A stretch of DNA of 64,000 nucleotides from Phycisphaerae bacterium (GTDB lineage: Bacteria; Planctomycetota; Phycisphaerae; WQYP01): contig JBQCGD010000071.1 of assembly GCA_051955985.1 (NCBI GenBank), positions 27,036-91,035 of the forward strand. The letters run 5' to 3'. A program made the position numbers and the translations under genes. Below the pieces are notes generated by a model that saw only the letters and a list, made by a program, of their open reading frames with translations, had not been told where the DNA came from and ran no database searches. Below, piece after piece: positions 1,678-43,293 of this stretch (the first letter of the stretch is position 1; every line of letters begins with the position of its first letter).

Positions 1678-1702
1678 GCCGACGAGGGCGTCGGCCCCAC
1701 TT
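1678..1702 (-). repeat. family-E stop-adjacent hairpin GCCGACGAGGGCGTCGGCCCCACTTT
   Basis: Immediately 3' of ferredoxin gene stop; one of five near-identical copies. Confidence 0.5.
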
Positions 1703-2590
1703 TCAGGCGATGATGGGGTCGACGGTGGGGCCGCGGGGGGTGATGGTGATGGCGCGGGGTTCGGTGGGGCAGCGGTTTTCGCAGAGGCCGCAGCCGATGC
1801 AGATGTTTTTGCGGACGATGATTTTGCCGGTGAGGGGGCTGGCGGTGATGGCCTGGAGGCCGTTGTCGTTGGCGACGGGGCAGACGTCGATGCAGAGGGT
1901 GCAGTTTTCGCCGCGGTCGCGGAGGCAGGTGGCGTGATCGACTTTGGCGGTGCCCATGTCGATGTTCAACATGTCGAGCATCTGGAGCGCGCCGGAGGGG
2001 CATGACTGCATGCAGGCAAGTTCACTGCAGACGACGCAGGGCTGATCGGCGGGAACGACGTAGGGGAAGCCGTCGGCGGTGAGATGGTTGGGATCGAGCT
2101 GGATGGCGTCGGCGGGGCAGGCCTCGACGCATTTGGCGCAGCGTGAGCAGACCGACTCGAACTGGCCGGGGTCCATGGCGCCCGGGGGGCGGAGGTAGCG
2201 ATCGAGCAGGTGCTTTTTCTTCGGTGTTTCGGGCTTGCCGACGGGGAGCGAGTATTTGCCGATGTGAATCTGATCGAGCTTGGGGGGCTCGCTCTTCGCA
2301 AATCGTTCGGCCTGGTCGGGGATGGCCTCGATGGCGTTCAGGAGGGGGTTGATTTTGCGTTCGATGACGCCGGCAAAGGGAGAGAGGACCTCTTTCATGG
2401 CATCGGAGAAGAAATCGCGACGCTCCTTTGGGCGTACGGGCTTCACGCGGCGCACTTCGGAGGTCGGCCGCGGCGGAGGGGGGGGCACCGCGGGTTTCTG
2501 GGGCGGGACCTCCGGCGCGCGGGGCGGCGGGGCCGGGGATTTCGCGGGCTCGGGGGCGGGGGATTGTTCTGATTGCGTATCGCTCATCAC
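1703..2590 (-). CDS. 4Fe-4S ferredoxin-type protein with Pro-rich N-terminus (NapG/MauM-like)
   Basis: Four CxxCxxCxxxCP clusters (CSRCAKCVEACP, CVVCSELACMQSCP, CTLCIDVCP, CIGCGLCENRCP). Confidence 0.7.
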   Translation of the reverse strand: MMSDTQSEQSPAPEPAKSPAPPPRAPEVPPQKPAVPPPPPRPTSEVRRVKPVRPKERRDFFSDAMKEVLSPFAGVIERKINPLLNAIEAIPDQAERFAKSEPPKLDQIHIGKYSLPVGKPETPKKKHLLDRYLRPPGAMDPGQFESVCSRCAKCVEACPADAIQLDPNHLTADGFPYVVPADQPCVVCSELACMQSCPSGALQMLDMLNIDMGTAKVDHATCLRDRGENCTLCIDVCPVANDNGLQAITASPLTGKIIVRKNICIGCGLCENRCPTEPRAITITPRGPTVDPIIA

Positions 2591-2667
2591 TCTTGCCGAT
2601 ATTATACGCAGAGGGCCGCGTCGTTCTCGCGGTCCGGGGCATGCACTTTCGGAAATTCGGCGGACCG

Positions 2668-3315
2668 ATGCAAACGCTGCACGATTTTTTCCTGATTCTC
2701 CTGCCGTTGTTTGTGGTGATGGACCCGGCGGGGACGCTGCCGGTGTATGTGGCGTTGACCGCGCATTACACCGACGAGCAGCGGCGTCAGATCGCGGTGA
2801 AGGCGACGGTGGTGGCAGCGGTAACGGGGATCCTGTTCGTGGTTCTGGGGCAGGCGATATTTAATTTTCTGGGGATCCAGTTTGCGGATTTTCAGATTGC
2901 CGGGGGCATATTGCTGGTAATCCTGGCGGTGCTGGATCTGCTTAGTCCGGGGAAGCCGGCGGTGAATGAGGCGGCACAGACGGATCCGGCGGCGTCGATC
3001 GGGATTGTGCCGCTGGCAGTGCCGCTGATCGTGGGGCCGGCGACGATGACGACGAGCCTGCTGCTGGTGAACACGTACGCGAAGACGTATGGGCAGGTGC
3101 TGGTGGCGGCGATGGTGTGCGCGGGGCTGCTGCTGAACCTGGCGGTGCTTTTCGTGGCGATGTGGTTTTCGGGCCGGCTGGTGGCCCTCATCGGGCGGAA
3201 CACGATGAGCGTGGTGAACAAGATTGTGATGATCCTGCTGGCGGCGATTGCGGTCAGCTTGATACGCCAGGGGATCGTGAGTATTGTCAACGACCTCCGC
3301 GTGCCGCCGGTATGA
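2668..3315 (+). CDS. MarC family (UPF0056) integral membrane protein
   Basis: MQTLHDFFLILLPLFVVMDPAGTLPVYVAL... typical MarC N-terminus, 6 TM segments; start chosen at 2668 to avoid overlap with ferredoxin gene. Confidence 0.7.
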   Translation: MQTLHDFFLILLPLFVVMDPAGTLPVYVALTAHYTDEQRRQIAVKATVVAAVTGILFVVLGQAIFNFLGIQFADFQIAGGILLVILAVLDLLSPGKPAVNEAAQTDPAASIGIVPLAVPLIVGPATMTTSLLLVNTYAKTYGQVLVAAMVCAGLLLNLAVLFVAMWFSGRLVALIGRNTMSVVNKIVMILLAAIAVSLIRQGIVSIVNDLRVPPV

Positions 3316-3364
3316 AAGCGGTGGAGCGCGGCAGCCGCGTGATCCGCCCCGAAAGGTTTCCCCG

Positions 3365-3721
3365 ATGAACGAATCCGAAACGTCCGCAGGTCTGAGCCCC
3401 GAACAGAAGACTGTCCGGTATGCCCCGGGCTCGGTGGTGCGCATCACGCAGCAGATTCCCCGCCGCACGGATACGGTTGTCACGACCGTCACCGGCACGG
3501 TGATGCGGCAGGAGAGGCAGCCTTCCGGAAGCTGGTACGCCCGGAACGCAGGGAGCAAGGTGTGGCTCGACCGGCTGGTGATCCGGAAAGAGGATGGGGA
3601 GATCACGATTCTCAACCTGGATGAATACACGGTGGTGGAAGTGATTCGGGGGCCGGAGGCGGTTCGTGCGGAATCGCCGCTGGTGGTACCCGCCCGGGAT
3701 GCCGCCGCGGGTTTGACGTAA
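3365..3721 (+). CDS. hypothetical protein
   Basis: ORF with GAAAGG upstream of ATG 3365; no recognisable motif. Confidence 0.3.
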   Translation: MNESETSAGLSPEQKTVRYAPGSVVRITQQIPRRTDTVVTTVTGTVMRQERQPSGSWYARNAGSKVWLDRLVIRKEDGEITILNLDEYTVVEVIRGPEAVRAESPLVVPARDAAAGLT

Positions 3722-3735
3722 TCGCCCATTCCCGA

Positions 3736-5256
3736 TTATCGGAAGACGGTGTATGCCGCCGCAGCGATCAGGAGCGCCGGCGGGATGATCCATCGCAGGC
3801 GTCGGGGGCCGTGGAGTGAGAAGACCACGTAGAGCATGCAGACGAGCAGGACGGTCTGGTCGGCACCGGGGCGGCTCAATTCCCCCGCGCCGAAGTTGTT
3901 CAGGAGCATCGTCAGCAAGCCCAGGAGCAACGCCAGCACGCCGGCGAAATGGGGGGGGGTTGTGCCGCGGGGCCCGGCGCGCCAGCCGAGTCCCACCACC
4001 ACGATGCCGAGGACGATGAGCGGGAAGTCGAGCAGGCCGACGATCTGCTGGAAGAGTTTATCGGGGGAGGGCGTGGGGCGGGCTTCTTCGAGGAGGCAGG
4101 CAATGCCGAAGATCAGGAGCCCGATTTCACCGGCAGCCATGACCACAAAACCGCGTGCCCGGGTTGCCGGGGGGGACGGTTTGACGCAAATCAAGTAACC
4201 GGCGGCGATGATCCAGAGGGCGAGGGCCGGGAGGAGCATGAGGAAATCGGGGGAGAGCCACGTGAGGAGGAGCGCAAGGGCCATGACCGCGAAGTAGCGC
4301 GCGACGTTGTTGCGGTTCATGGCGATGATGGCGCCGGCCATGAGCCCGAGCAGTCCGGTGCTCAGAAGGGTGTGATCGAAGGGCTGGGCCTTGTGGTAGA
4401 GCAGTGGGTTGAGGAGCACGAGGGAGAAGAACCCGTCCGCGACGCGCATGCGGTGCCGCACACGGCGCGCGGCGATCGTGAAGGCAAAAGCCGCTGCCGC
4501 CAGGAGTGCAACGTTTGCCACATCCCCCAGGGTTGCACCGCCCGGGTGGTAGCTGACCTCCAGCATGGCGGCGGCGATCATTGCCCACCAGAGCGACCAT
4601 ACCAGCAGGGGTGACTGCAGGGCCAATCCCACCCAGCGCGCGACGGGCCGCAGCGAGGAGGTCCGCTGTCCCATCTTCGTCGCCCGCACCTCCCCGAGGG
4701 GGCATTCCTGCAGATTGGCCTTCACCGTGAGCTCGATGCCCACCGTTTCGGCATGGACGGACTCGACGCGCTGCCAGTCGACGAAGGCGGGATCGTAGGC
4801 GCGGAATTGCGATTCCACGTTTCCCGGGTCGATTCCGGCCAGGACGAAAAGCGCCCAGTCTGCGATGCTCCGCCGGTGGCCCCGGCATGCGACGACCGCG
4901 CAATGCTCTTCCCGCACCCGTCGCACCATTGCAGGAATCGCAGCGACATCGTCGGCGCCGCTCGGATTGAGCGTCACCACCACGTCTCCGGCGGCGGCGC
5001 GAAAGCCCTCTGCGTATCCGCCGGCGTCATGATCGGTCTGCTCGACCACCCGCATCGCGGGCGGCCGCGTGGGCAGCGCGTCGATCATCTCCAGCGCGGG
5101 CGCATCGCAGATGACGAGAAATTCGTGGGCGAATCCGTGCAGGGCCCCGTGCATCCGCTGCACCTGCGCGAGGAGCACCTGACCGTCGTGCGGCGCCGGC
5201 AGCACGACCGAAATCATCCGCGACTGCGTTGCCTCAGAAACCTCGCCGCTCGTCAT
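3736..5256 (-). CDS. glycosyltransferase family 2-like domain fused to polytopic membrane domain
   Basis: N-terminal ISVVLPAP... GT-A-like start, C-terminal two-thirds strongly hydrophobic multi-TM. Confidence 0.45.
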   Translation of the reverse strand: MTSGEVSEATQSRMISVVLPAPHDGQVLLAQVQRMHGALHGFAHEFLVICDAPALEMIDALPTRPPAMRVVEQTDHDAGGYAEGFRAAAGDVVVTLNPSGADDVAAIPAMVRRVREEHCAVVACRGHRRSIADWALFVLAGIDPGNVESQFRAYDPAFVDWQRVESVHAETVGIELTVKANLQECPLGEVRATKMGQRTSSLRPVARWVGLALQSPLLVWSLWWAMIAAAMLEVSYHPGGATLGDVANVALLAAAAFAFTIAARRVRHRMRVADGFFSLVLLNPLLYHKAQPFDHTLLSTGLLGLMAGAIIAMNRNNVARYFAVMALALLLTWLSPDFLMLLPALALWIIAAGYLICVKPSPPATRARGFVVMAAGEIGLLIFGIACLLEEARPTPSPDKLFQQIVGLLDFPLIVLGIVVVGLGWRAGPRGTTPPHFAGVLALLLGLLTMLLNNFGAGELSRPGADQTVLLVCMLYVVFSLHGPRRLRWIIPPALLIAAAAYTVFR

Positions 5257-5266
5257 GGCCCAACGC

Positions 5267-5692
5267 TTACTGGCACTTCGGACACGTGCCGTGCAGAACC
5301 ACTTCCGGGTAATGAATGCTGTACCTGCTGCCGACGCCTAATGACTTCACGAAGTCGCGAGGAATCTCGGCTTCTTTCAAGCATTCCACCTTGCCGCATT
5401 CCTCGCAGATAAAGTGGGGGTGCTGGTGCGCCGGGGCTTCCTGGGGATTACCGAGGGCATAGCGCGAGACGCCATCCTCGCCGCGCACGCGGTGAATCAC
5501 GCCCTTTTTGGTGAAGGTGTTCAACGTCCGGTAGATGGTGACGGTGTCGGTATGCGGCGGCAGCTTCGCCTGAATCTCAACGGCTCCCAGCGGCCGCGAC
5601 GAGCCCCCCAGCACCTCCAGCACGCCTGCCCGCACGGGCGTGCGCCGCAGCTTGCTCTGCCTGATCAGCCGTTCCACCAACTCGTCATTCAT
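5267..5692 (-). CDS. Fur family transcriptional regulator (Fur/Zur/PerR)
   Basis: Winged-helix N-terminus, HxH...CEECG...CPKC metal-site pattern typical of the Fur family. Confidence 0.75.
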   Translation of the reverse strand: MNDELVERLIRQSKLRRTPVRAGVLEVLGGSSRPLGAVEIQAKLPPHTDTVTIYRTLNTFTKKGVIHRVRGEDGVSRYALGNPQEAPAHQHPHFICEECGKVECLKEAEIPRDFVKSLGVGSRYSIHYPEVVLHGTCPKCQ

Positions 5693-5758
5693 GCCAGAAT
5701 CTTACCCCGCGGCCCCGGCATGGCAACCGGCGTTGGTTTCGAGGGGCGAGGCGCCGGC

Positions 5759-8305
5759 TCATCGGCGCGGGAGATTTCGCGCCTTTCGTCCGCCCTGCCT
5801 TTTGGCGGCAGGCGCGGGCGGTGCGGGGTCAGGCGTCGGCGCCGTCAGGGCGGGCCCGGTTGCGGCCGATGCGGGGGCTTTTGCAATCTCCCAGAGCCTG
5901 TAAATGACTTGAGGGTCGTGCCTCGGCGGGTCGGTTTGCGCCTGCGGGGCCACCGCAAATCGCCGCTTCCCGCCGAACGCCCGCACGTTCGCTATATTTC
6001 CCACCATCTGCATCGTGGGCACTTCCCAGTCCTCCACTTTTTTCACAACGCACCCATCCCCTGTCGGCGGCACCTCCACGCGCCCCACCCGGGGGCTCTC
6101 CTGCCGGACGAACATCACCCGGCGCCCTTCCGCCAGGTAGTGCGTAATCAGATCCATTTTGGCGCGCCGCAGTTCGCTGGCCGGCCGGGAGTTCCAGTTC
6201 CCGTTTTTGTCCTGCACGCCCAGCAGTTCCTCATAAAAACGGGAGCGCTCGAGCTGGATCGGATCGGGGTCATCCTGCTTATCCTTGTCGGAGTCCCGGA
6301 TCTCCACGCGGCGTTTTGAATCCGCAAAAAACGGTCCGTTGAAGAGCGTGTCGTTGATCAGTTGCCAGCCCCCCACCGCGTCGAGATCATTCAAGATGCG
6401 ATCTTCGCTGAAAATAACCGTCCCGGCCGGCGCCTTCTTTCGCAGGACATTGACTGTCGACCGCAGACCCACGAATTGCGTGTAGTTCGCCATCACCTGG
6501 GGCATGAAGTTGTGCAGGTTGATCCCGCACCCGATCGCCGTCAGGATGCCGGCGCCGAGCGCCATACCGACCTTTGCGGCGGCGAACTCCCGGTCAAAAA
6601 TCCAGATGCCCGCAATTACGAGGAGGATGAAGCCGGCGATCCCCATCCCCAGCCAGCTTTCCCACACAAAATCGCGAACCGCGGCCCACGTGGTCGTCAG
6701 GAGGGGGAGGCCCAGCTCGATGGGCGCATCATCGAGGTACAATGCCACGCAGATGAAGAAAAATGCCCCGAAGGCCGTGATGGCCAGCAGCGACGCCCAG
6801 CGCTCGCCCCGCAGCACGGCCAGGCCACGGTCCAGGAGCCAGAGCCCCGCGAAAACCAACCCCGGCACGATCGACATGAAAAAGCGCATGTACCCCAGGG
6901 TGTTTTCGCCACCCGGCGCCCAGTAGTAGAGCATGTACAACAATGTCGATGGCAGCACCCAGAGCGCCAGCAGCATCCCGAGCCGCCAGGCCGACCCCGC
7001 CATGGCAAACAACCCCGCGATCGCCAGCGGCCACAGGACGAACAGGCCGGTGTGGTTCAACTGCGTGACCATGGTTTCCCAGTTGCCCACGCGACCGGGG
7101 AGCCCGTCGCCAAAATCACCGCTCAGGTACTTCCAGGCGAAGCCGGTGCTTTCCCGGCAGTAGGTGTATCCGGTCTTCCACGGCGCGCCGAACGCGATCC
7201 AGCAGACCCCCGCGAGGACCGCAATGGGAATCGACCACGCCAGCATCAGCGAGAGCGATCCCCAGGCCCGCTTCCAGTTCATCCGGAAATTCAGGAGCGC
7301 GGCAAACAAGACGGGGAGGACCAGCAGGAACTCCGAGTAGCGGATGGTGCACGCATATCCCAGTGCGAACCCGCCGATCCAGGCGCGCCAGTTCTGCCCG
7401 GTACGGAGCCAGGAGAGCACGCCCCAGAATCCCACCGTCACGCAGAACAGCGTGGACGCATGCGAGTTCGCATCGTTGGCGTAGTAGAGGACCAGCGGAT
7501 TGCACGCCAGCCAGATCACGCCGAGCAGGCTCATGAAGGGCGTCACGGCCTGGCGGAAGAGAAAGTAGGCGAAGTAGCACGCCAGCACCGTGCAGAGCGG
7601 ATTGACCACGTACATGCCGTCGATGCCGCCGATCAAGCGTCCGAGGGCCGCGAGGAGCGGGAAGCCGAAGGGGTATTTCGCGTAGACCCGGTATTGCGCC
7701 GGCTGGGCCGCATCCGCGGGCCCGTACGGCTCGGTGATGATGTCCATGCGTCCGGCGAACTGGTAGGGCGTCTCGGGCACGAAGCTCAATCGATTCCGCA
7801 GCCAGTCAAACGCGTGCCATTGCTGCATGGATGAAGGCATTGGGTGTTCCGCGGCGCGTGCCAGCAGGTCCGCCGTCGGATCATGCAGATCGCGACGCAG
7901 GGGGTATGGCAACTGGGGCGTAAACAGGGCGCGCAGCCGGTCGTAACCGGTCCAGTTCGGCAACGGCCCGGGCGTGGCGGAAACGTCGACGGCGGGCGCG
8001 GGGCGCTCGGGCGAAAAGATGTTCCTGTCCCCCGCAATGAGCCGGGCGGTCATCAGATATCCGTTCTGATCCACCCCGGCATGCGCCCCGGCGTAAAAAA
8101 ACGACAGGGCGTATGCGTAGAGCCCCACGATTGCGATGAAAACCATCACGGCGAGCCAGCGCCGGCCGCTTTCCTCCTCCGGCGTGGGCCACAAGGGGCG
8201 TTCGGCAAGCGCCGGCGTCGAGCCTTTTCGGGGAGCGGGCACAGCCACGGATTCCGGCGGCCGCGAAGACGTCAAACCTGCTGGTGCCAAAGGGTAAGTC
8301 GACAT
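5759..8305 (-). CDS. large polytopic membrane protein, GT-C-fold glycosyltransferase-like (ArnT/PMT-like) with C-terminal soluble domain
   Basis: About 12 TM helices in first 560 aa then charged soluble tail; start placed at second Met (8305), first Met at 8353 also possible. Confidence 0.5.
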   Translation of the reverse strand: MSTYPLAPAGLTSSRPPESVAVPAPRKGSTPALAERPLWPTPEEESGRRWLAVMVFIAIVGLYAYALSFFYAGAHAGVDQNGYLMTARLIAGDRNIFSPERPAPAVDVSATPGPLPNWTGYDRLRALFTPQLPYPLRRDLHDPTADLLARAAEHPMPSSMQQWHAFDWLRNRLSFVPETPYQFAGRMDIITEPYGPADAAQPAQYRVYAKYPFGFPLLAALGRLIGGIDGMYVVNPLCTVLACYFAYFLFRQAVTPFMSLLGVIWLACNPLVLYYANDANSHASTLFCVTVGFWGVLSWLRTGQNWRAWIGGFALGYACTIRYSEFLLVLPVLFAALLNFRMNWKRAWGSLSLMLAWSIPIAVLAGVCWIAFGAPWKTGYTYCRESTGFAWKYLSGDFGDGLPGRVGNWETMVTQLNHTGLFVLWPLAIAGLFAMAGSAWRLGMLLALWVLPSTLLYMLYYWAPGGENTLGYMRFFMSIVPGLVFAGLWLLDRGLAVLRGERWASLLAITAFGAFFFICVALYLDDAPIELGLPLLTTTWAAVRDFVWESWLGMGIAGFILLVIAGIWIFDREFAAAKVGMALGAGILTAIGCGINLHNFMPQVMANYTQFVGLRSTVNVLRKKAPAGTVIFSEDRILNDLDAVGGWQLINDTLFNGPFFADSKRRVEIRDSDKDKQDDPDPIQLERSRFYEELLGVQDKNGNWNSRPASELRRAKMDLITHYLAEGRRVMFVRQESPRVGRVEVPPTGDGCVVKKVEDWEVPTMQMVGNIANVRAFGGKRRFAVAPQAQTDPPRHDPQVIYRLWEIAKAPASAATGPALTAPTPDPAPPAPAAKRQGGRKARNLPRR

Positions 8306-8487
8306 GGCGTCCTTCACACAACACAGAACCGCCGCAGTTATCGGCATTTCCAATCCGCGAACATGCTAAACGCATCGGCACTTCCGATGTTGCGGTCCAT
8401 GCGACTGTTCCCCATCCGCAAAAATCACGTTGCCGCCGCATCCAAGTCCTTCCCTCATTCGGCCGATGACACTGGAGAGGTCATTTC

Positions 8488-9270
8488 ATGCTCGATGAAT
8501 CCGCACTTGATATTGAGAATGCCGTTTCGGCCCACCTGATGCGCGAATCGCAGAAGATGGAGGAGGAGCTTCTGCAGGCCCGCGCGGTCCAGCGGTACCT
8601 TCTTCCGCCGGAGGTGCAGGAGCACGCGGGTTTCCGTACGGCGTTCGTGTATCACCCGCTGCACCATGTGGGCGGCGACTTCCTGGATACGCTGCTCCGC
8701 CCCGACGGAAAACTCGTCCTCATGATCGGTGATGTTTCCGGGCACGGCATGGCAGCGGCGCTCAGTTCCGCCATGCTCAAGACGGCGTTTCTCCGCCACG
8801 CCCCCGGCGCGAGCGGCCCGGGTCACCTGCTGTCGCTCATCGACGCGGAGCTCCACAAAACGGTCCGCTTCGGCCGCTTTGTGACTGCCATGATTGCCTG
8901 GTTTGATGTGGCGACAAGGACGCTGACCGTTTCTTCGGCCGGCCATCCGCCTGCACTCCTCATGCGGCGGGGCGAAGTTTCCCGGGTTGAGGCCGAGCCC
9001 CACCTGCCGCTTTTCACCGGGGATGCCGTTGAATACCCCGATGCGCCTGCGATCCAGATGCTGCCCGAGGACCGGCTCCTCCTGATGACCGACGGGGTGC
9101 TCGAAGCGACGCGCTCCTCCGGCGAGATGATCACCACCGACGAAGTGAGCAAGGTGGTCAGTTCCTGCCCGGTCGACGGCAACTTTGCGGCGTGCATCTT
9201 TGAATCGCTTTTCTTTTCCGATCTCGTCTTCAACGACGACGTGAGCCTGCTGGCGCTGGAAGTGAGATAG
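8488..9270 (+). CDS. PP2C-type Ser/Thr phosphatase, SpoIIE/RsbU family
   Basis: GDVSGHG metal-binding signature, LLLMTDG second Asp motif. Confidence 0.7.
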   Translation: MLDESALDIENAVSAHLMRESQKMEEELLQARAVQRYLLPPEVQEHAGFRTAFVYHPLHHVGGDFLDTLLRPDGKLVLMIGDVSGHGMAAALSSAMLKTAFLRHAPGASGPGHLLSLIDAELHKTVRFGRFVTAMIAWFDVATRTLTVSSAGHPPALLMRRGEVSRVEAEPHLPLFTGDAVEYPDAPAIQMLPEDRLLLMTDGVLEATRSSGEMITTDEVSKVVSSCPVDGNFAACIFESLFFSDLVFNDDVSLLALEVR

Positions 9271-9310
9271 CGGGGTACCGTCCGGTGCAATGGCCGGACC
9301 TGTTATCTGT

Positions 9311-10750
9311 TCACTTATCTCGTGGGAGAAACGGCCGCGCGCTCAACGACTTCCCGACCAGCGTGCGTCCCGCCCAGATATCCTTCAACTGCCCCGTCGT
9401 GATCGCCTGAGTCATGATGTTTCCGAGTGCCGTCGCTTCGACGGGCCCGGCGAGCACGCGCAGTCCGGTCGCATCCGCGGCCAATTGATTCAGCAGATGG
9501 TTCTGCGATCCCCCGCCGACGATGTGCAGCACCTTGAACTGCTTGCCGGTGATCTCCTCGAGCATCTTCAGGACGCGTGCATATCCGGCGGCGAGCGATT
9601 CGAGGATGACCCGCACGAATTCCCCATGCGTTTTCGGAATCCGCTGGTTCGTCCGGGTGCACTGCGCGACGATTTTGCCGGGCATGTTTCCGGGCGTGGA
9701 AAACGCGGGGTCCTCCACATCCAGCAGCGCGATGTTTGCATCCGCCGCCTCGGCCATCTGCGTCAGGGTGGCGTAATCGTATTCCGTCCCTTCGCGCTGC
9801 CACTCGCGCCGGCACTCCTGGAGCAGCCAGAGGCCGGCGAGGTTTTTCAGCAGACGGATTTTTCCGCCGACGCCCCCTTCGTTCGTCACGTTGTATTGCG
9901 CCGCTTTCTCGGTAAGCACGGGCTGGTCCGTCTCGGCCCCGAGGAGCGACCACGTGCCGCTGGAAAGGTAGAGCCAGTCACCCTGCGCGGGATTGGCCGG
10001 CACCGCGGCGACGGCGGAGGCGGTGTCGTGACCGCCGACGGCGATGACCGGGACGTTCGACAGCTTTTCATTCACTTGCGGGAGCACGGCGCCGCGGACG
10101 GAATTCTTTTCGCCCGGGATGGAGATCGGCGGGAACAGGGCGGGATCGATGCCGATGGTCTTGAGGACTTCCGGCGACCATTGCCGGGTCCTGGCATCGA
10201 GCATCTGCGACGTGGAGGCGATCGTGTAATCGGTGCCTTTCCGACCGGTGAGGAAATAGGTGACCAAGTCCGGCAGGAAGAGGATGCTCTTGGCCGCGGC
10301 CAACTGCGGCGAATTTCCGAGGGAGAGCGCGGCCATCTGGAAGAGCGTGTTGAGGGACATCGTCTGGATGCCGGTGATGGAGTAGATCTTCTCTTTGGGC
10401 ATCCGCGTGAAGACGGCCTCGACCATGGGTTCGGTCCGCGGGTCGCGATAGCAGACCGGGTTTCCGAGCAACTCTCCGTTGGCGTCGAGCAACCCGAAAT
10501 CCACGCCCCAGGTGTCGACGCCGATGCCGGAAATTTCGTGCCCGCTCGCCCCCTTTGCGATGCCGGTCTTGATCTCGTGCCAGAGGCGCAGGATGTCCCA
10601 ATGGAGGCGTTTTCCGACCTGCACGGAGATGTTGGGGAAGCGATGCAGCTCGGTGAGTTTAATTCCGGCGTCGGAGACGGTCCCGAGCATCACACGACCC
10701 GATTCTGCGCCCAGGTCTATCGCCAGGTAATGTTTCTCACCACTCGCCAT
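9311..10750 (-). CDS. rhaB: rhamnulokinase (FGGY carbohydrate kinase)
   Basis: LAIDLGAESGRVMLG, GIDTWGVDFGLLD, VGGHDTASAV, HIVGGGSQNHLLNQ motifs closely parallel E. coli RhaB. Confidence 0.8.
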   Translation of the reverse strand: MASGEKHYLAIDLGAESGRVMLGTVSDAGIKLTELHRFPNISVQVGKRLHWDILRLWHEIKTGIAKGASGHEISGIGVDTWGVDFGLLDANGELLGNPVCYRDPRTEPMVEAVFTRMPKEKIYSITGIQTMSLNTLFQMAALSLGNSPQLAAAKSILFLPDLVTYFLTGRKGTDYTIASTSQMLDARTRQWSPEVLKTIGIDPALFPPISIPGEKNSVRGAVLPQVNEKLSNVPVIAVGGHDTASAVAAVPANPAQGDWLYLSSGTWSLLGAETDQPVLTEKAAQYNVTNEGGVGGKIRLLKNLAGLWLLQECRREWQREGTEYDYATLTQMAEAADANIALLDVEDPAFSTPGNMPGKIVAQCTRTNQRIPKTHGEFVRVILESLAAGYARVLKMLEEITGKQFKVLHIVGGGSQNHLLNQLAADATGLRVLAGPVEATALGNIMTQAITTGQLKDIWAGRTLVGKSLSARPFLPRDK

Positions 10751-10841
10751 GATTCATTCCTCTCGCAAACGGATGCAGGCCCGATTGTAAGGCAGCGCCC
10801 GCAACTTGAGGAGGGATGGGGGTGTCAGCGGGGTGGTGATT

Positions 10842-11612
10842 TCAGCGTTTTGCCTGCGAGTGCTCGATCAGCCGCTGAACGTGGTCGTCCGGCAGGGCGA
10901 GCGCGCCGCCGCAGCTCTGGGCGGTCACGTAGGCCCGGGCGGCTTTTTGGGTCATGGCGGTCGCGGCGAGCACGGCTTCGGCCGTGGGACCGAGGGCGAT
11001 CATCCCGTGGTTGCCCAGCAGAATCGTCGCGGGTGGTTCGCCGTACTGGTTCATGTAGGTTTCCAGCCGGTACCGCAGTTCCACGGCAAGTGGCAATCCT
11101 GGATCCATGTAGGGGACAAAGAGCGAGCGCGGCCCGCACAACTGCACCTGCTGCGGAAAAAGGCGGACGGTGGCGAACGCTTCCGCCTTTGGGGAGGCCA
11201 TGATTCCGGCGACATAGGTGGGATGGGTGTGGCCGATGAAGCGGATTCCCGGGAGATCGAGGAGGACGGCGTGGAAGAAGGCTTCCTTCGAAGGCATGGG
11301 CGCGTGCGCCGGGCTGGCGGCGTGGAGGCAGTCGACGATGGCTGCGCGGCTGGCATTGGGTTTTCTGGCGACGAGCTGCAGCAGGGGCTCGAAGGTCAGC
11401 GGGACAAAATCGTCTTCCTTGGCTTTCTGGAGGTATTTCCCGGAGGCCTTGAGGAGGAAGGTCTTCCCATCCACTTTTGCCGAGCAGTCCCCTTCGTTGT
11501 GAATCACGTACTCATTGGCCGGATCGCCCAAGGCGTGAGCGAAGGGCAGGAGTTCGGCCACTACAGATCGATGCGGCATTTGCTCGGGTCCCCTAGAGAG
11601 ATGACGGCTCAT
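10842..11612 (-). CDS. class II aldolase/adducin family protein, putative rhamnulose-1-phosphate aldolase
   Basis: HTHP zinc-ligand motif, about 256 aa, immediately downstream of rhaB on same strand; RBS AGGAAGG before ATG 11612; appears as C-terminal part of artefactual 953-aa ORF in the track. Confidence 0.7.
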   Translation of the reverse strand: MSRHLSRGPEQMPHRSVVAELLPFAHALGDPANEYVIHNEGDCSAKVDGKTFLLKASGKYLQKAKEDDFVPLTFEPLLQLVARKPNASRAAIVDCLHAASPAHAPMPSKEAFFHAVLLDLPGIRFIGHTHPTYVAGIMASPKAEAFATVRLFPQQVQLCGPRSLFVPYMDPGLPLAVELRYRLETYMNQYGEPPATILLGNHGMIALGPTAEAVLAATAMTQKAARAYVTAQSCGGALALPDDHVQRLIEHSQAKR

Positions 11613-16592: not shown

Positions 16593-16677
16593 TGAAGCGC
16601 AACGAGGCCGCGAAGTCGCAAGCGTTGGGGCGGGCACGTGCGTTGAATGAACGGTTTGGGTGTGGGGATTAAGATTA

Positions 16678-16704
16678 GCCGATGGGGGCGTCGACTCCAC
16701 TACT
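16678..16704 (-). repeat. family-E hairpin (degenerate copy GCCGATGGGGGCGTCGACTCCACTACT)
   Basis: At stop of FHA-PP2C gene. Confidence 0.45.
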
Positions 16705-19277: not shown

Positions 19278-19419
19278 CGGCGCGGGGGGGGGCGCGGCTG
19301 GGAGATGAGCGCGTTGAGGGGATGCAATGTGTCGGGTGCATGGTTCGCGACGACGCAAGCGTAGGCGGGGATCGCCGTGTTGTGCGAGACGCTGCGCAGG
19401 TGAGGACCACAAGGGAAGA

Positions 19420-19447
19420 GCCGACGGGGGCGTCGGCTCCACTTTTA
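19420..19447 (-). repeat. family-E hairpin GCCGACGGGGGCGTCGGCTCCACTTTTA
   Basis: At stop of lipoprotein gene 19445..20647. Confidence 0.5.
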
Positions 19448-21389: not shown

Positions 21390-21989
21390 TCAGTTCAGGG
21401 TTTTGACTTCGTACTGGCCGGTCCAGACTTCGGCGCCGGTGGTGAGGCTGGTGAGGCGGAACTGGCAGAGGTAGTAAGTGGTTTTGCCGTTGTTCATGCT
21501 GTAGAAGGTGCCGGCGAGGGCGTATTGGGGCTTGATGCGGGGATCCTGGGGCTGGGGGCCGCCGCGGGAGGCATCTTCGAAGGGGTCGTTGTTGTTGCCG
21601 CCGAGTTCTTCGCTCTGGAGTCGCTCGAGGGTGGCGCGGTCGGAGACGAAGAGGAGGCGGTCGCGGGTCTGGGCGGAGTTGAGGAGGCCCTTGAGGCGGG
21701 CGATGTAGATGTCCATGTTGCGGCCGGGCATGTCTTCGGTTTTGTTTTCGATGGACTTCATGACGATAGTGACGCGGTAGGGGTTTTGGGCGATTTCCGG
21801 GATGGCGACGAGGTCGGGGGCGAGTTTGCTGGTCATTTCGCGGAGGTCGCGGCTCTGCAGGCCGTGCTCGCCGCTTTGGACGGTGTCCATATCCGGGCGC
21901 ATTTCGTTGCGGTCTTTTTCGCAACCACCGAGGCCGACCGCGACTGCACCGATGATGCCGCAAACTGCGACGCACTTTGCAATACCCAT
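21390..21989 (-). CDS. LpoB-like lipoprotein, paralog 2
   Basis: Lipobox LGGC; YALAGTF...TYYLCQFRLTSLTTGAEVWTGQYE; GGAGGA RBS. Confidence 0.5.
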   Translation of the reverse strand: MGIAKCVAVCGIIGAVAVGLGGCEKDRNEMRPDMDTVQSGEHGLQSRDLREMTSKLAPDLVAIPEIAQNPYRVTIVMKSIENKTEDMPGRNMDIYIARLKGLLNSAQTRDRLLFVSDRATLERLQSEELGGNNNDPFEDASRGGPQPQDPRIKPQYALAGTFYSMNNGKTTYYLCQFRLTSLTTGAEVWTGQYEVKTLN

Positions 21990-27886: not shown

Positions 27887-27947
27887 GGCCACGAAAGACA
27901 CGAAGGGCACGAAATTGTTTCAGGGTGTGGAGCGGTTTCGTGTCGGA
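27887..27947. repeat. family-A repeat (GCCACGAAAGACACGAAGGGCACGAAATTGTTT...)
   Basis: Intergenic parB/rbsK; shares GCCACGAAAGACAC...CACGAAATT core with copies at 32541 and 37518; internal inverted repeat GACACGAAA...TTTCGTGTC. Confidence 0.5.
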
Positions 27948-29200: not shown

Positions 29201-29238
29201 GAGGTGCCCGCGTCGCCTGCGGGCGACGGGCGTTGGGG
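29201..29238. repeat. family-C GC-rich palindromic repeat GAGGTGCCCGCGTCGCCTGCGGGCGACGGGCGTTGGGG (copy 1)
   Basis: Contains hairpin GTCGCC-TGCG-GGCGAC; three copies within 1.5 kb. Confidence 0.5.
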
Positions 29239-29775: not shown

Positions 29776-29810
29776 GTGCCCGCGTCGCCTGCGGGCGACG
29801 GGCGTTGGGG
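29776..29810. repeat. family-C repeat copy 2
   Basis: GTGCCCGCGTCGCCTGCGGGCGACGGGCGTTGGGG. Confidence 0.5.
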
Positions 29811-30616: not shown

Positions 30617-30660
30617 AGAGGTGCCCGCGTCGCCTGCGGGCGACGGGCGTCGGGCGTCGG
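30617..30660. repeat. family-C repeat copy 3
   Basis: GAGAGGTGCCCGCGTCGCCTGCGGGCGACGGGCGTCGGGCGTCGG. Confidence 0.5.
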
Positions 30661-32540: not shown

Positions 32541-32612
32541 TTGAAGGGATTCGCAGCGGATAAATTAGCCACGAAAGACACTAAAGACACGAAATTTTTA
32601 CTGGTGGTGTGG
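32541..32612. repeat. family-A repeat (TTGAAGGGA...TAAATTAGCCACGAAAGACACTAAAGACACGAAATTTTT)
   Basis: Between ADH gene start and HEAT-lipoprotein stop. Confidence 0.5.
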
Positions 32613-36360: not shown

Positions 36361-37497
36361 ATGAAAGTTCTGATCAATCGCGCCGCGCTGGTGGAAGCCC
36401 TCGGCCTTGCTTCTTCTGTGGTTCTTTCGCGGACGCCGAAGCCGGTGTTGACGTGTGTGAAGCTGGTGGCGGGGACGGGGGCGGGCGGGACGGGGGCGAA
36501 GACGCTGACGGTGGTGGCGACGGACATGGAGCTGGCGCTGCAATACACGCTGACGCAGGTGGATATTGCGACGCCGGGGGTTGCGTTGATTCCGGCGGGG
36601 AAGCTTTCGGAGATTGTGAACAATTCGCCGGACGATACGCTGACGCTGGACACGAACCAGGACACGACAGCGATCAAGGGGTCGGATGCGCAGTACAAGG
36701 TGTTCGGGTACAACCCGGAGGAATTTCCGCCGGTGTCGTCGTTTGACGGGTCGCCGGACTTTTCGCTGACGGCGGGGAGCCTGCGGCAGCTGCTGGACCG
36801 GACGCGGTTTGCGGCGGCGCGCGAGATGACGCGGTATGCGATCAACGGCGTGCTGTTTGAGAAGAAGGGGAAGAAGCTGTCGCTGGTGGCGACGGACGGG
36901 CACCGGCTGGCACAGACGAAGGATGACACGATTTCGGAAGGGGGGAAGGATGTGTCGGCGGTGGTGCCGATCAAGGCAATCAACCTGATTGAGCGGCTGC
37001 TGACGGATCCGGAGCAGACGGTGTCGCTGCAGTTCAAGGAAAACAAGCTGTTTGTGCAGATCAGCTCGGAGACGGGGGGCGTGAGTGCGACGATGTCGAC
37101 ATCGCTGGTGGAGGGGACGTTCCCGCCGTACGGGGATGTGATTCCGAAGGATTCGGACAAGAAGGTGACGTTGAACCGGGAGCGGTTTTTCTCGGCGGTG
37201 CGGCGTGCGGCGTTGCTCACGAACGAGGAATCGAAGGGGGTGCGGCTGGCGTTTTCGAGCGGGACGTTGTCGATTTCTTCGCGGGCGCCGGAGATGGGCG
37301 AAGCGAAGATTGATCTGCCGATCGAATATGCAGGGGATGCGATTGAGATCGGGTTCAATCCGACGTATCTGCTGGACGCGTTGAAGGTGGCGGATCAGGA
37401 GACGGTGACGTTTGAGATGAAGACGCCGAACAAGCCGGGGCTGCTCAAAAGCGGTCCGGGGTTCTTGTATGTGGTGATGCCGGTGAATCTCAGCTGA
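36361..37497 (+). CDS. dnaN: DNA polymerase III beta sliding clamp
   Basis: MKVLINRAALVEALGL...three-domain clamp pattern, about 378 aa. Confidence 0.85.
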   Translation: MKVLINRAALVEALGLASSVVLSRTPKPVLTCVKLVAGTGAGGTGAKTLTVVATDMELALQYTLTQVDIATPGVALIPAGKLSEIVNNSPDDTLTLDTNQDTTAIKGSDAQYKVFGYNPEEFPPVSSFDGSPDFSLTAGSLRQLLDRTRFAAAREMTRYAINGVLFEKKGKKLSLVATDGHRLAQTKDDTISEGGKDVSAVVPIKAINLIERLLTDPEQTVSLQFKENKLFVQISSETGGVSATMSTSLVEGTFPPYGDVIPKDSDKKVTLNRERFFSAVRRAALLTNEESKGVRLAFSSGTLSISSRAPEMGEAKIDLPIEYAGDAIEIGFNPTYLLDALKVADQETVTFEMKTPNKPGLLKSGPGFLYVVMPVNLS

Positions 37498-37517
37498 GTT
37501 AGTGTGTTTTCCGGCTC

Positions 37518-37580
37518 ATTGAAGGGACGTAAATGAGCCACGAAAGACACTAAAGACACGAAATTGTTTTACGTTTTTTT
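37518..37580. repeat. family-A repeat (TTGAAGGGACGTAAATGAGCCACGAAAGACACTAAAGACACGAAATTGTTTT)
   Basis: Between dnaN and dciA; 37/38 identical to copy at 32563..32600. Confidence 0.5.
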
Positions 37581-37611
37581 GGCCTTTTGACGTGCAGATG
37601 CGGCTGTCTGC

Positions 37612-38082
37612 ATGATCGTGGGTTTTATGCCTCCCCGCAAAAAGAATAACGGCCAGAAGCCGGCCGCGCGCTCGAACGCGCCTTCGCCTGAGAACATCTC
37701 AAACCTGGAGATGCGGGGGGATCGGCTGAAGGTGTTTTCGCTGCAGACCCTGCTGACGAACAAGAAGAGCAAGGAGACGCGGGAGACTGCGAAGCTGGGG
37801 GAGGTGTTGTTGCCGTGGTTTGAGAAGATGGTGGAGAAGCCGGCAGAGAAGATGGAGGGGGTGCTGGAGCTGTGGATGGAGCTGGCGCCGCCAAATCTGA
37901 AGGAGCGTGCGCGGCTGGTGAGTTTTCAGCGGGGGACGCTGACGATCGCGGTGGAGTCGGCGACGGTGCGGGCGGAGCTGGATGGGCAGTTGCGGCAGGG
38001 GCTTTTGCGGAAGCTGCAGATGGGGTCGAAGGGGGCGATTTTTCGTATCAAGACATCGGTGCAGCCCTTACGGGAGATGTGA
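37612..38082 (+). CDS. dciA: DUF721 family protein, candidate DciA-type helicase loader
   Basis: C-terminal LELWMELAPPNLKERARLVSFQRGTLTIAVESATVRAELDGQLRQGLLRKL matches DUF721 hydrophobic pattern; immediately downstream of dnaN. Confidence 0.5.
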   Translation: MIVGFMPPRKKNNGQKPAARSNAPSPENISNLEMRGDRLKVFSLQTLLTNKKSKETRETAKLGEVLLPWFEKMVEKPAEKMEGVLELWMELAPPNLKERARLVSFQRGTLTIAVESATVRAELDGQLRQGLLRKLQMGSKGAIFRIKTSVQPLREM

Positions 38083-38420: not shown

Positions 38421-38579
38421 CACAATCGGCGCGACAAGGGGGGAAGGGGCGATGAACGGGTAAGTTACGGGGGTTTTGACGGGCGGGCATTTTGCCTGAT
38501 TGGGGGAGCGGAGCGAGCGCGAGGGGCGTCCTGAATCCCCACGCGGTGGGAGGCGTGGGCTTGGGGAGGGTGGGGAAGC

Positions 38580-39509
38580 TCAGGAGCGGTGTTCCCAGCC
38601 GGCGCGGGGCCAGGGATGTGGGCGGCTGTCGGGGTCGATTAGTTGGAGGGCGTGGTCGGCGGTGATGGTGCCGATGGCGGTGAGGGGGATGTCGGAGATG
38701 CCGATGATTGCGGGGGTTGCGTCGGGGTCGAGGGCGAAGAGGAGTTCGTAGTCTTCGCCGTCGGCAAGGGCGTGGAAGCCGGCGGGGAGGGAATCTTTTT
38801 TGGAGAGGGTCCAGGCATCTTCGTGGATGGGGAGCTGGGCGGTGTGGATCTGGGCGCCGACGTTGGAGGCGTTGCAGAGGCGGGGGAGGTCCTGGGCGAG
38901 GCCGTCGGAGAGGTCCATCATGGCGTGGAGGGCGGGGCCGGCGGCTTTGGCCAATTTTTGGGCGAGGTCGATGCGCGGTTTGAAGGCAAGGTGGCGGCCC
39001 AGAAGGGATCCGCCGAGAGCGCCGGAAACGAAGAGGGTGTCACCGGGCTTTGCGCCGCTGCGGGTGATGAGGTGTTGGCCCGTCGGAATGCGGCCGAGGG
39101 CGGAGACGGTGATGGCGAGGCGTTGATCCCAGATGCTCGTGTCGCCGCCGACGAGGGGGCAGTTCAATGCGGCGCCGGCGGCCTGGCAGGCGAGGAATAG
39201 TTCCTTGGCGAACTCTTCGCCGGAGCCGGGGCCTTCGTTGGGGAGGGCGACGGAGATCATGAGGGCGGCGGGGAGGCAGGCCATGGCGGCGCAGTCGGAG
39301 AGGCAGCGGTTGACGGCCTTGGTGCCGGCCTGCGCGGCGGAATGGTGCCGAAGGTCGAAGTGGACCTGGTCGAGGCATTGATCGATTTTGAGGATGGCGA
39401 GGGAGGGGGCGATGTCGACGGCGGCCATGTCGTCGCCGATGTTGAGTTTCACCGCAGGGTGTTGCGGGGTGTTTTGGCGGATCCAGGAGAGGAAGTCGTT
39501 TTCGCGCAT
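38580..39509 (-). CDS. thiL: thiamine-monophosphate kinase
   Basis: AIR-synthase-related fold (IGDDMAAVD..., GGDTS...); start at ATG 39509. Confidence 0.7.
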   Translation of the reverse strand: MRENDFLSWIRQNTPQHPAVKLNIGDDMAAVDIAPSLAILKIDQCLDQVHFDLRHHSAAQAGTKAVNRCLSDCAAMACLPAALMISVALPNEGPGSGEEFAKELFLACQAAGAALNCPLVGGDTSIWDQRLAITVSALGRIPTGQHLITRSGAKPGDTLFVSGALGGSLLGRHLAFKPRIDLAQKLAKAAGPALHAMMDLSDGLAQDLPRLCNASNVGAQIHTAQLPIHEDAWTLSKKDSLPAGFHALADGEDYELLFALDPDATPAIIGISDIPLTAIGTITADHALQLIDPDSRPHPWPRAGWEHRS

Positions 39510-39550
39510 GGGGCACGCGGTGGATGGAGGAATGGTTCGATGCGACACGA

Positions 39551-39586
39551 AAAATTTTAGCCGACGGGGGCGTCGGCTCCACGTTA
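39551..39586 (-). terminator. intrinsic terminator of pyc (family-E hairpin + U-run)
   Basis: On minus strand: TAA-CGUGGA-GCCGACG-CCCCC-GUCGGC-UAAAAUUUUU. Confidence 0.55.
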
Positions 39587-42500: not shown

Positions 42501-43018
42501 TCGCGGACGACGCGCATGCCGCGGCCGCCGCCACCGTGAGCGGCCTTGATGATGAGGGGGAATCCGATGCGTTTGGCTTCGCGTTGGACATCTTTCCAGT
42601 CGGAGACGGCGTCGTGGGTGCCGGGGACGATATCGACGCCGGCGGCGTCAGCGATTTTGCGGGCGGCGGTTTTGTCGCCGAATCCGCGGAGCATTTCGGG
42701 GGTGGGTCCGACGAAGGTGATGCCGGCGTCGGCGCAGGCCTGGGCGAAGTCGGCATTTTCGGAGAGGAAGCCGTAGCCGGGGTGGATGAATTCGACGCCG
42801 GTTTCCTTGGCGATCTGGATGATGGCGGGGATGTTGAGGTAGTTTTTGACGGGGGCGTCCGGGCCGCCGACCTGGTAGGCTTCGTCGGCCTTGAAGCGGT
42901 GGAGGGAGTAGCGGTCTTCGTGGGAGTAGATGGCGACGGTGCGGAAGCCGAGCTCGGTGGCGGCGCGCATGACGCGGATGGCGATTTCGGAGCGGTTGGC
43001 GACGAGTAATTTTTTCAT
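39584..43018 (-). CDS. pyc: pyruvate carboxylase
   Basis: N-terminal biotin carboxylase (MKKLLVANRSEIAIRVMRAA...), central carboxyltransferase, C-terminal biotinyl domain with EAMKME. Confidence 0.9.
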   Translation of the reverse strand: MKKLLVANRSEIAIRVMRAATELGFRTVAIYSHEDRYSLHRFKADEAYQVGGPDAPVKNYLNIPAIIQIAKETGVEFIHPGYGFLSENADFAQACADAGITFVGPTPEMLRGFGDKTAARKIADAAGVDIVPGTHDAVSDWKDVQREAKRIGFPLIIKAAHGGGGRGMRVVREISELQDKLAEASREAGAAFGKGEVFLERFIQRAKHIEVQLLGDSHGNLLHLFERDCTIQRRHQKVVELAPAVSLPFGVRQKICEAALKIGRQVHYRNAGTVEFLVDAETNEFFFIEVNPRIQVEHTVTELITGIDLVKSQIRVAQGYNLHDAPMNLPRQQNLTFRGVALQSRITSEDPANGFTPDYGRITSYRSPAGYGVRLDGGTAYSGAMITPYFDSLLVKLTCFGSTFEEVIARTQRALAEFRIRGVKTNIPFLQNLVAHPDFHSGKATTTFIDTTPALFKFHQRRDRATRLLTYLADVIVNSRPEIKKKPDLSVMTPPPLLPIGRADQIPPGTRTKLIELGPKKFADWVLKQKKLLITDTTMRDAHQSLLATRVRTIDMLNAAPFVSHNLPQLFSLEMWGGATFDTALRFLSEDPWERLAQLRKEIPNILFQMLFRASNALGYTNYPDNVVREFAKLAAAHGMDVFRIFDSLNWTENMKVAIEAVLETDALCEAAICYTGDILNPKRDKYSLTYYVKLAKELERMGTHILAIKDMAGLLKPLAARKLVKALRDEVGIPIHFHTHDTAGIQGGAYLMAAEAGVNIVDCAVSSMSGMTSQPNMNAVVAALHNTPRDTGLSDESLSRYSDYWEAVRRFYSPFEEGMLAPTASVYQHEMPGGQYTNLRVQAKSLGLESRWPDVEKAYADANQLFGDIVKVTPSSKIVGDMALFMVTNNLKPADILDPDRHLAFPKSVVEFFRGDIGQPTGGFPKQLQKIVLGKEKPLKNRPGATLSKVNLDKTRSELSEKIHRDASDTDLASYLMYPQVFLEFERFRKHYGDVANIPTTAFFYGLQPYQEIPIEIEPGKTILVRFLTVGDPDPDGMVTVFFELNGQPREVKVPDRKRVITKVERPKADSMNPKHVGAPMPGKVTAVSVSLGQTITKGAKLLSIEAMKMETAVYSPREGKIAKIDVQPGTLVAAGDLLIEIE

Positions 43019-43126
43019 GAACGGTTCCTGCGTGGGGGGCCGGCAAAGACCCGAGAGGATACACGAATCGTGCGGGGGCGGGAAGGCGGATAGGTGTTTT
43101 TCGCGGGGTTTTTGCGGGATTGGGGG

Positions 43127-43160
43127 GATTTTCGATTTTGGATTTTCGATTTTCGATTTG
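43127..43160. repeat. GATTTTC/GATTTTG heptamer tandem repeat (x5)
   Basis: gattttcgattttggattttcgattttcgatttgg in pyc upstream region. Confidence 0.55.
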
Positions 43161-43203
43161 GGGGGTGGGAAGGGGCGCCATGTGTTTTTGGGTATCCGCG
43201 CGG

Positions 43204-43240
43204 CATGCTTCTGACCACCGAGGTTGTGGTCAGAAGCATG
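43204..43240. promoter_or_regulatory. perfect 15-bp inverted repeat CATGCTTCTGACCAC-N7-GTGGTCAGAAGCATG upstream of pyc
   Basis: Perfect palindrome arms; candidate operator or RNA hairpin. Confidence 0.4.
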
Positions 43241-43266
43241 GCACCCGGCACGAGCGACAAAGTTTG

Positions 43267-43293
43267 GCCGACGGGGGCGTCGGCCCCACTTTA
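43267..43293 (-). repeat. family-E hairpin GCCGACGGGGGCGTCGGCCCCACTTTA
   Basis: At stop of DUF2950 gene. Confidence 0.5.

Follow-up and report, generated by a model that had tools for sequence, protein, structure and literature searches.

Repetitive extragenic palindromes (REPs) have been well studied in Proteobacteria but barely in Planctomycetota. Quentin et al. (2018, PMC6006769) define a REP operationally as a hairpin with a loop of 2-5 nt and a stem of 7 bp or more in which every base is paired, preceded at a distance of 0-2 nt on its 5' side by the tetranucleotide GTAG or GTGG. In the GTAG-tagged REPs described by Di Nocera, De Gregorio & Rocco (2013, PMC3733652), a perfect, GC-rich stem of 7-9 bp with a short loop is separated by 0-1 nt from a GT[AG]G head that stays unpaired. 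These REPs occur as single units, head-head and tail-tail dimers, tandem groups and heterodimers of two subtypes; their neighbours are convergent or unidirectional genes, and the distance to the end of the upstream open reading frame (ORF) is as a rule below 20 bp. Such families were reported there from the Planctomycetes-Verrucomicrobia-Chlamydiae (PVC) superphylum, in Opitutus terrae and Rhodopirellula baltica, with GTGG heads predominating in one family of O. terrae. In the REPIN-RAYT systems of Pseudomonas and Enterobacteria (Bertels & Rainey 2011; REPtrons, PMC8266576) the hairpin and a tetranucleotide guide on single-stranded DNA serve a HUH Y1 enzyme, the REP-associated tyrosine transposase (RAYT). 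Here we describe a family of GTGG-headed palindromes in a stretch of 64,000 nucleotides, hereafter the window, from a metagenome-assembled genome (MAG) of a Phycisphaerae bacterium (contig JBQCGD010000071.1, positions 27,036 to 91,035), where five copies stand at the stop codons of five minus-strand genes (Table 1). We consider it probable that these five elements are GTAG/GTGG-tagged REPs which were spread by a RAYT-type enzyme and which are placed at gene 3' ends with a possible role at the RNA level.

When the window was searched for the 23-mer that includes the GTGG head, GTGGRGCCGACGCCCCCGTCGGC, allowing up to 3 mismatches, exactly five sites were found, at 1678-1700, 16678-16700, 19420-19442, 39560-39582 and 43267-43289, all of them on the minus strand, whereas none is expected by chance. 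A covariance model made from 40 unique copies and run over the window with its filters off recovered the same five sites at 36-47 bits, and the next match, at 16 bits, was the reverse strand of a true site. Since nothing beyond the five sites scored above 16 bits, the window holds no hidden degenerate copies. The 18-mer core, GCCGACGGGGGCGTCGGC, searched with up to 2 mismatches, matched the window six times, whereas dinucleotide shuffles give an expectation of 0.09. The sixth of these, at 43501-43518, is headless and lies within the coding sequence of the DUF2950 gene, and we regard it as a chance GC palindrome; for the other five this explanation is ruled out by the shuffles and by the gap in the covariance-model scores. 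A preliminary description of this DNA had listed five near-identical minus-strand elements, and the 23-mer search and the covariance model return just these. The DNA flanking the five copies is unrelated and therefore the repeated unit is only about 26-28 nt long, (A)A-GTGG-R-GCCGACG-CCCC-CGTCGGC-Y. No match at the gathering score of any Rfam 15 family was found anywhere in the window.

Table 1. Palindrome copies and the stop codons next to them, in window coordinates
Feature	Position	Strand	Description
REP copy 1	1677..1700	-	GTGG-G-GCCGACG-CCCT-CGTCGGC-C; loop variant CCCT; 46.5 bits; RNA fold -19.3 kcal/mol, z = -2.3
TGA stop, 4Fe-4S ferredoxin gene	1703..1705	-	2 nt before copy 1 head
REP copy 2, degenerate	16677..16700	-	GTGG-A-GTCGACG-CCCC-CATCGGC-T; 35.9 bits
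TAG stop, FHA-SpoIIE/PP2C gene	16700..16702	-	1-nt overlap with copy 2 head
REP copy 3	19418..19442	-	GTG-GAGCCGACG-CCCC-CGTCGGCTC; 9-bp stem; 46.7 bits; RNA z = -4.4, DNA z = -4.7
TAA stop, TPR-repeat gene	19445..19447	-	2 nt before copy 3 head
REP copy 4	39559..39582	-	GTGG-A-GCCGACG-CCCC-CGTCGGC-T, then AAAATTTTT; 42.4 bits
TAA stop, pyruvate carboxylase gene	39584..39586	-	1 nt before copy 4 head
REP copy 5	43266..43289	-	GTGG-G-GCCGACG-CCCC-CGTCGGC-C; 46.4 bits; RNA fold -22.8 kcal/mol, z = -5.1
TAA stop, DUF2950 gene	43291..43293	-	1 nt before copy 5 head

The assignment of these elements as REPs rests on the GTGG head and on the stem and loop, which have the anatomy given in PMC6006769. 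In all five window copies GTGG stands 1 nt before the stem, or 0 nt when the R-Y pair at the base is counted with the stem. Four of the five have a perfect stem of 8-9 bp and a 4-nt loop, copy 2 has one mismatch and one wobble, and every copy is extragenic, at most 2 nt from the upstream stop and between convergent or unidirectional genes. Among the 40 unique copies the base before the stem covaries with the base after it (GC 22, AU 5, CG 2, UA 1 and UG 1), hence the helix is really one of 8 bp, and the inner seven pairs are nearly invariant among these copies, which were gathered with a near-exact pattern. The preliminary description had proposed a 7-bp stem with a pentaloop; the seven inner pairs stand, but the loop is a CCCC tetraloop and the basal R-Y pair brings the stem to 8 bp, and to 9 bp in copy 3. 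The head reads GT[AG]G in 39 of 41 unique copies from all sources, and A is enriched at positions -3 to -1 before it (16-20 of the 41 copies) despite the GC-rich surroundings, which matches the conserved AAGUGG that had been pointed out earlier. When folded as RNA, four window copies form a GC helix of 8-9 bp with a CCCC tetraloop at -14 to -23 kcal/mol with their flanks and with z-scores of -2.3 to -5.1, and the hairpin is stable as single-stranded DNA too (z-scores of -3.6 and -4.7). The helix of copy 5 can be extended by its flanks AAAGU/ACUUU. Copy 2 is a decayed member of the family: with its C-A mismatch and its wobble it folds no better than shuffled sequences, either as RNA (z = -0.01) or as DNA.

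The adjacency of the five copies to stop codons is far from random. The gap between stop and GTGG head is 2, -1, 2, 1 and 1 nt for copies 1 to 5, in keeping with the earlier statement that the elements abut or overlap the stops, and the stem, as read from the sequence, begins 3-6 nt past the stop codon. With uniform placement of each copy within its own intergenic space, five heads out of five would fall from -1 to +2 nt relative to their stops with a probability of about 5.5e-8. When the choice is limited to minus-strand TAA, TGA and TAG triplets in non-coding DNA, the probability that five of five fall at genuine stops is about 3e-4, a value that depends on the gene map, which is approximate. 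Pfam domains confirm that the upstream genes are real and encode a 4Fe-4S ferredoxin, an FHA plus SpoIIE/PP2C protein, a protein with TPR repeats, pyruvate carboxylase and a protein of the DUF2950 family, and the domains of all five proteins extend to the C-terminus. The genes are thus unrelated, as had been said of them, except that the one at 19420, which had been labelled a lipoprotein gene, encodes the TPR protein. Orthologues of the pyc, DUF2950, TPR and ferredoxin genes that lack a REP terminate at the same residue as the genes in the window, and therefore the window stops are native, that of FHA-PP2C excepted. For the same four genes this rules out that the stops were made by the element or that the ORFs were over-called. 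The FHA-PP2C protein ends in ...RRE-TAG in the window and in ...RRV-TAA in relatives, and the first G of the copy 2 head is the third base of the stop; this is the only one of the five genes in which the REP head furnishes that base. Strict stop adjacency is the unusual feature of these REPs.

Comparison of the orthologous sites in two relatives showed that most of the insertions are polymorphic. Loci from other genomes are designated here by L and a number; relative A is represented by L032, L033 and L036 (pyc 89% identical) and relative B by L034, L035 and L038 (pyc 86%, FHA-PP2C 83% and ferredoxin 87% identical). There was no element after pyc, DUF2950, TPR or FHA-PP2C in relative A, and none after pyc, FHA-PP2C or the ferredoxin gene in relative B. 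The site of copy 1 is empty in L038, that of copy 2 in L035, L036 and L037, the last with an FHA-PP2C that is 87% identical, and that of copy 4 in L032 and L034, and where the window has copy 5 after DUF2950, L032 of relative A has a canonical terminator. The sites of copies 1, 2, 4 and 5 are therefore empty in relatives whose flanking proteins are 77-89% identical, which is a presence/absence polymorphism between related genomes at four of the five sites. At the site of copy 3, which is empty in L036, the identical 23-mer is found in L035 at 5749-5771, 2 nt past a TAA, with CC as the spacer where the window has AA. The copy in L006 has no orthology with any site in the window.

The same unit was found in distant hosts. 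Exact copies of the 23-mer were present at 15 loci in a collection of species-representative genomes and on 16 metagenome contigs. The hosts are MAGs of Planctomycetales, Phycisphaerae and Tepidisphaerales and, in the Acidobacteriota, MAGs of Bryobacteraceae/Bryobacterales, one of these copies being on a 1.49-Mb contig; one more match is on a 2-kb contig binned as Actinomycetota. No exact copy of the 23-mer was found in viral contigs, which rules out a phage-borne element. Many of the single units in these genomes lie just 3' of the stops of unrelated genes, for example at 2-17 nt from genes of the DUF4432, GNAT, SDR and HTH families, and some copies lie far from stops. Other arrangements were present too: L007 has a tail-tail dimer whose units are 1 nt apart, L022 has two tail-tail dimers, L008 and L009 have head-head dimers, and L004, L010 and L017 have tandem groups. 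In heterodimers, GTGG-G/CCCCC units are joined to partners whose head is GTAG-C and whose loop is CCCTC. Two copies are intragenic and in frame, one in purH of L025 (3387-3409) and the other in cysS of L032 (1467-1489). The peptides that they encode are SGADAPVG in the PurH linker and SGTDTPVGL in the variable loop of CysRS; the CysRS of the window has a different, longer insert at the latter loop. The copies in Bryobacteraceae have, without exception, a second hairpin, GCCGGACCCCCTGGTCCGGC, behind them. A second hairpin, GCYGGACCCCCTGGTCCRGC, stands directly after the REP in L001, L002, L012 and L030 (Bryobacteraceae and related Acidobacteriota) and forms with it a lineage-specific two-hairpin composite. 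The two dimers of L022, at 1877-1947 and 3091-3161, bracket a segment of about 1.1 kb whose sole gene is of the Mrr restriction type (Mrr_N domain), which suggests a REP-flanked cassette. The REP-bracketed genes in L011 are a nucleotidyltransferase-type pair, as judged by eye only.

The family resembles the GTAG-tagged REPs of PMC3733652 in its unpaired head next to a perfect GC-rich stem with a short loop, in its occurrence as single units, head-head and tail-tail dimers, tandem groups and two-subtype heterodimers, and in its sites close behind the upstream ORF between convergent or unidirectional genes. In both, some heads contribute a TAG stop and some copies are intragenic and in frame, tRNA synthetase genes being among their hosts. 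The window copies differ from the GTAG-tagged REPs in that their stop adjacency is far tighter (-1 to +2 nt in five of five), in that all of them are singletons, and in that the host is a Phycisphaerae MAG. Identity with the families of O. terrae was rejected, because the unit does not match the peptides given as REP-encoded in the 2013 supplement, the comparison being made via peptides only, and GCCGACG-CCCC-CGTCGGC is absent among the families that can be reconstructed from the peptide table of PMC3733652. The CGTC-tagged superfamily of REPs was rejected as well; its members have CGTC as an unpaired terminal tag, a CCA-like tail and 8-9 bp of stem with A-T pairs at the start, whereas here CGTC is paired and the base of the stem is G-C. 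A literature search did not find the 18-mer. The earlier label of REP-like element is upheld by the GTGG head, the perfect GC stem with its short loop, the dispersed copies, the site 3' of genes, the dimers elsewhere and the presence/absence polymorphism, and the palindromes appear, from their sequence, to be a new member of the GTAG/GTGG REP superfamily with a presumed link to a RAYT.

From established REP biology we infer that copies would be spread by a HUH tyrosine transposase of the RAYT type, which would act on single-stranded DNA and read the hairpin together with GTGG as a guide. This is the design of the REPIN-RAYT systems, but those systems carry an inverted doublet, the REPIN, and the window does not; no doublet of two inverted REPs with a short spacer was found in the window, nor did the covariance model give any nearby partner for a copy there, and mobility is read here from empty orthologous sites alone. 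Directly 3' of the stem the base is C at 24 of 41 flank positions and C or A at 33 of 41, with CC or CA common. In vitro, a change of GTAG to GTGG shifts cleavage to CC, with CA still allowed (Corneloup et al. 2021, PMC8266576), and the CC or CA after the stem may be taken as weak agreement with the RAYT guide model.

Several observations weigh against REPs that are spread by a RAYT. Neither tblastn, with E. coli RayT and a PVC-type Y1 sequence as provisional queries, nor scans for the HUH...Y motif found a RAYT or other Y1 HUH transposase in the window and 38 loci of other genomes. A RAYT is usually encoded by a single-copy gene. The 5' flanks of the copies (AA, TA, AA, C, A and CC) have no fixed target dinucleotide, and the five window copies are all singletons. 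Because the scans used the exact 23-mer, ascertainment accounts for part of the near-invariance that the stem shows across phyla. The GTGG strand, being C-rich, is tentatively not the template of the lagging strand by the usual skew rule. Finally, the copy behind the TPR gene is identical at 23 of 23 positions in the window and in L035, where the protein identity is about 85%, and both of its flanks are unalignable, which points to constraint or concerted evolution at this site and not to simple selfish turnover; by its sequence, the site would have been either conserved under constraint, homogenised or hit twice.

The identity at the TPR gene would be expected if the palindrome were mainly a host-selected cis element and not a mobile one, that is, a DNA or RNA site for a conserved protein that controls termination, 3'-end processing or translation termination. 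Such an element would likewise account for the strict placement at genuine stops, for the conservation of primary sequence besides structure, the unpaired GTGG head and the CCCC loop included, and for the presence of the same 23-mer in several phyla. However, four of the five sites are empty in close relatives in which the genes are intact, so that the element is dispensable at each of these sites, and in other genomes the unit is also found in dimers, in tandem arrays, inside genes and at a distance from stops. In addition, copy 2 has decayed, and the invariance across phyla is inflated by the exact 23-mer search. We consider a host-selected element unlikely.

Still less likely, in our view, is that the hairpins evolved or were recruited at gene ends as terminators, whether intrinsic ones of a non-canonical kind that lack a U tract or bidirectional ones lying between convergent genes. 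In favour of this, a GC-rich hairpin follows each of the genes directly, as in an intrinsic terminator, three of the five copies lie between convergent genes, and the pyc copy as well as the plus-strand reading of copy 5 (hairpin followed by CCACTTTATT) pass a lenient terminator pattern. The U tract on the sense strand is nevertheless missing in four of five copies, as had been observed before, and in the fifth, that of pyc, the U run begins 5 nt past the stem. The pyc copy had been called a classical terminator; its U run is there, but its distance from the stem, the absence of the insertion from the closest relatives and the canonical terminators elsewhere in the window speak against the word classical. 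Canonical hairpins with a U tract were found in the window after 49929-50801(+) and after 21390-21989(-), and a bidirectional one at about 52109-52138, and therefore hairpins without a U tract are not the normal terminator of this host; the relative that lacks copy 5 has a canonical terminator in place of the REP. Moreover, intrinsic terminators do not share the conserved primary sequence of the REP, its unpaired GTGG head or a stem that is identical across phyla, nor its intragenic and arrayed copies in other genomes, and copy 2 is unable to form the hairpin. It is highly improbable that the copies are leftovers or targets of some other mobile element (subterminal hairpins of miniature elements derived from IS200/IS605, or preferred insertion sites of an IS110/IS3-type element) and not RAYT-dependent REPs, for although no RAYT was found and the design of hairpin plus guide is common to IS200/IS605 ends (PMC8266576), the flanks of this unit of about 26-28 nt hold neither a transposase nor a longer conserved element at any copy, a GT[AG]G head 5' of a perfect palindrome with head-head and tail-tail dimers is the REP signature, and viral contigs have no copies.

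If the copies are REPs fixed at these stops, each would be transcribed as the start of the 3' untranslated region, and its position allows some suggestions on what it might do there. While the stop codon occupies its A site, a ribosome covers about 3-6 nt of the mRNA beyond it. The GC hairpin, 3-6 nt after the stop, would thus lie within the mRNA that the terminating ribosome covers, and the ribosome would have to melt the base of a strong GC helix, which could slow or stall it at termination. The hairpin could also block 3'-to-5' exonucleases and so set a stable 3' end of the mRNA right after the coding sequence; a hairpin just past the stop is the classic geometry for protection by REPs against 3' exonucleases. 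Both roles, protection of the 3' end and slowing of the ribosome, are suggested by position and by analogy. According to the account of Liang, Rudd & Deutscher (2015) given in PMC12306157, a REP that lies no more than 15 nt from a stop in E. coli causes ribosomes to stall and lowers the expression of the upstream gene. The likeness to the present copies is that a stable hairpin lies a few nucleotides past the stop and inside the mRNA footprint of the ribosome. The E. coli REPs differ in that only 11% of them are that close, by the RepRanger count, compared to five of five here, and in that they are bulged, imperfect palindromes, whereas four of the five stems here are perfect. The stop adjacency may have come about by selection for an effect at the RNA level, or by a preference of insertion for the A/T-containing context of stops in a GC-rich genome. 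We also regard as doubtful, although worth stating, that this strongly skewed Phycisphaerae lineage has domesticated the REP and coupled it to translation termination. In that case the hairpin would be held 3-6 nt past genuine stops of genes on the C-rich strand and would stay sequence-identical at orthologous sites although the flanks diverge, and its role would be to tune the release of ribosomes, trans-translation or the loading of Rho on C-rich mRNAs, or to bind a protein shared across phyla.

Of the five copies, three have convergent neighbours and two have unidirectional ones; divergent gene pairs hold no copy. The convergent partners of copies 1, 2 and 3 are the plus-strand gene 1064-1570, the NTP_transf_5 gene and the DUF4396 gene, respectively. 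Copies 4 and 5 lie between genes of the same direction, copy 4 between pyc and an AIR-synthase-like gene whose real ATG is at about 39509. Copy 1 had at first the appearance of being internal to an operon, which was wrong, because the ORF 2-1663 is over-extended and a plus-strand gene converges there. This minus-strand ORF belongs to an epimerase gene whose real start is near 787 (96% identical to L038), and the plus-strand gene 1064-1570, which converges on the ferredoxin gene, is 77% identical to a 170-aa protein of L038. Relative B has at the ferredoxin/epimerase locus an extra gene of 169 aa that has no counterpart in the window.

All copies of the strongly skewed lineage, namely the five in the window and those in L035 and L006, have their GTGG on the C-rich strand and their upstream genes on that strand. 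With about 20 genes on each strand of the window, copies follow 5 of 20 minus-strand genes vs 0 of 20 plus-strand genes (Fisher p = 0.047); in one window a bias of replication strand and a bias of gene orientation are inseparable. The GC skew itself is extreme, +0.25 to +0.47, at 1-4000 and 12000-56000 of the window, and it is independent of gene orientation, plus-strand genes being G-rich and minus-strand genes C-rich at third codon positions. Two islands of about zero skew, 4000-11000 and 57000-64000, hold ordinary genes (PMT_2 glycosyltransferase, SpoIIE and FGGY kinase in the one, PHO4 and an AddA-like helicase-nuclease in the other). The skew of the loci of relatives was +0.34 in L034, -0.34 in L035, -0.42 in L037 and +0.30 in L006, and it was much weaker in L032 (-0.10) and L036 (+0.04). 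A dnaN-dciA pair is present at 36361-38082 without an adjacent dnaA and without a change in the sign of the skew, so that it is not visibly a replication origin.

Other repeats were observed in the same DNA. A second palindromic family, GTGCCCGCGTCGCCTGCGGGCGACGGGCGTYGGGG, is present in the window at 29204-29238, 29776-29810 and 30621-30655, and related copies stand in L035 and L037 about 35-45 nt after the stop of FHA-PP2C, the gene end that holds a REP in the window. A third intergenic repeat, made of tandem 9-mers CACGAAAGA-CACKAAAGA-CAC, is on the plus strand at 27890-27910, 32570-32590 and 37539-37559, with six pattern matches against 1.4 expected; runs of CACGAAG that resemble it were seen in intergenic DNA of L035 and L036. 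Lastly, a 7-nt tandem repeat, GATTTTC in 4.7 copies, lies at 43127-43159 in the 272-nt spacer upstream of pyc, beside an 11-bp hairpin at about 43207-43237.

The family described here is a clean example of a REP, with a perfect 8-bp stem, a GTGG head and an exact sequence that is common to Planctomycetota and Acidobacteriota. For annotation it follows that such hairpins should not be labelled terminators. If the association with stops turns out to be an insertion preference, it would inform how RAYT-type enzymes choose their targets in GC-rich genomes. If it is functional instead, it would extend to a distant phylum the E. coli finding that stop-proximal REPs regulate translation, and these genes would offer a simple natural system in which to test it.

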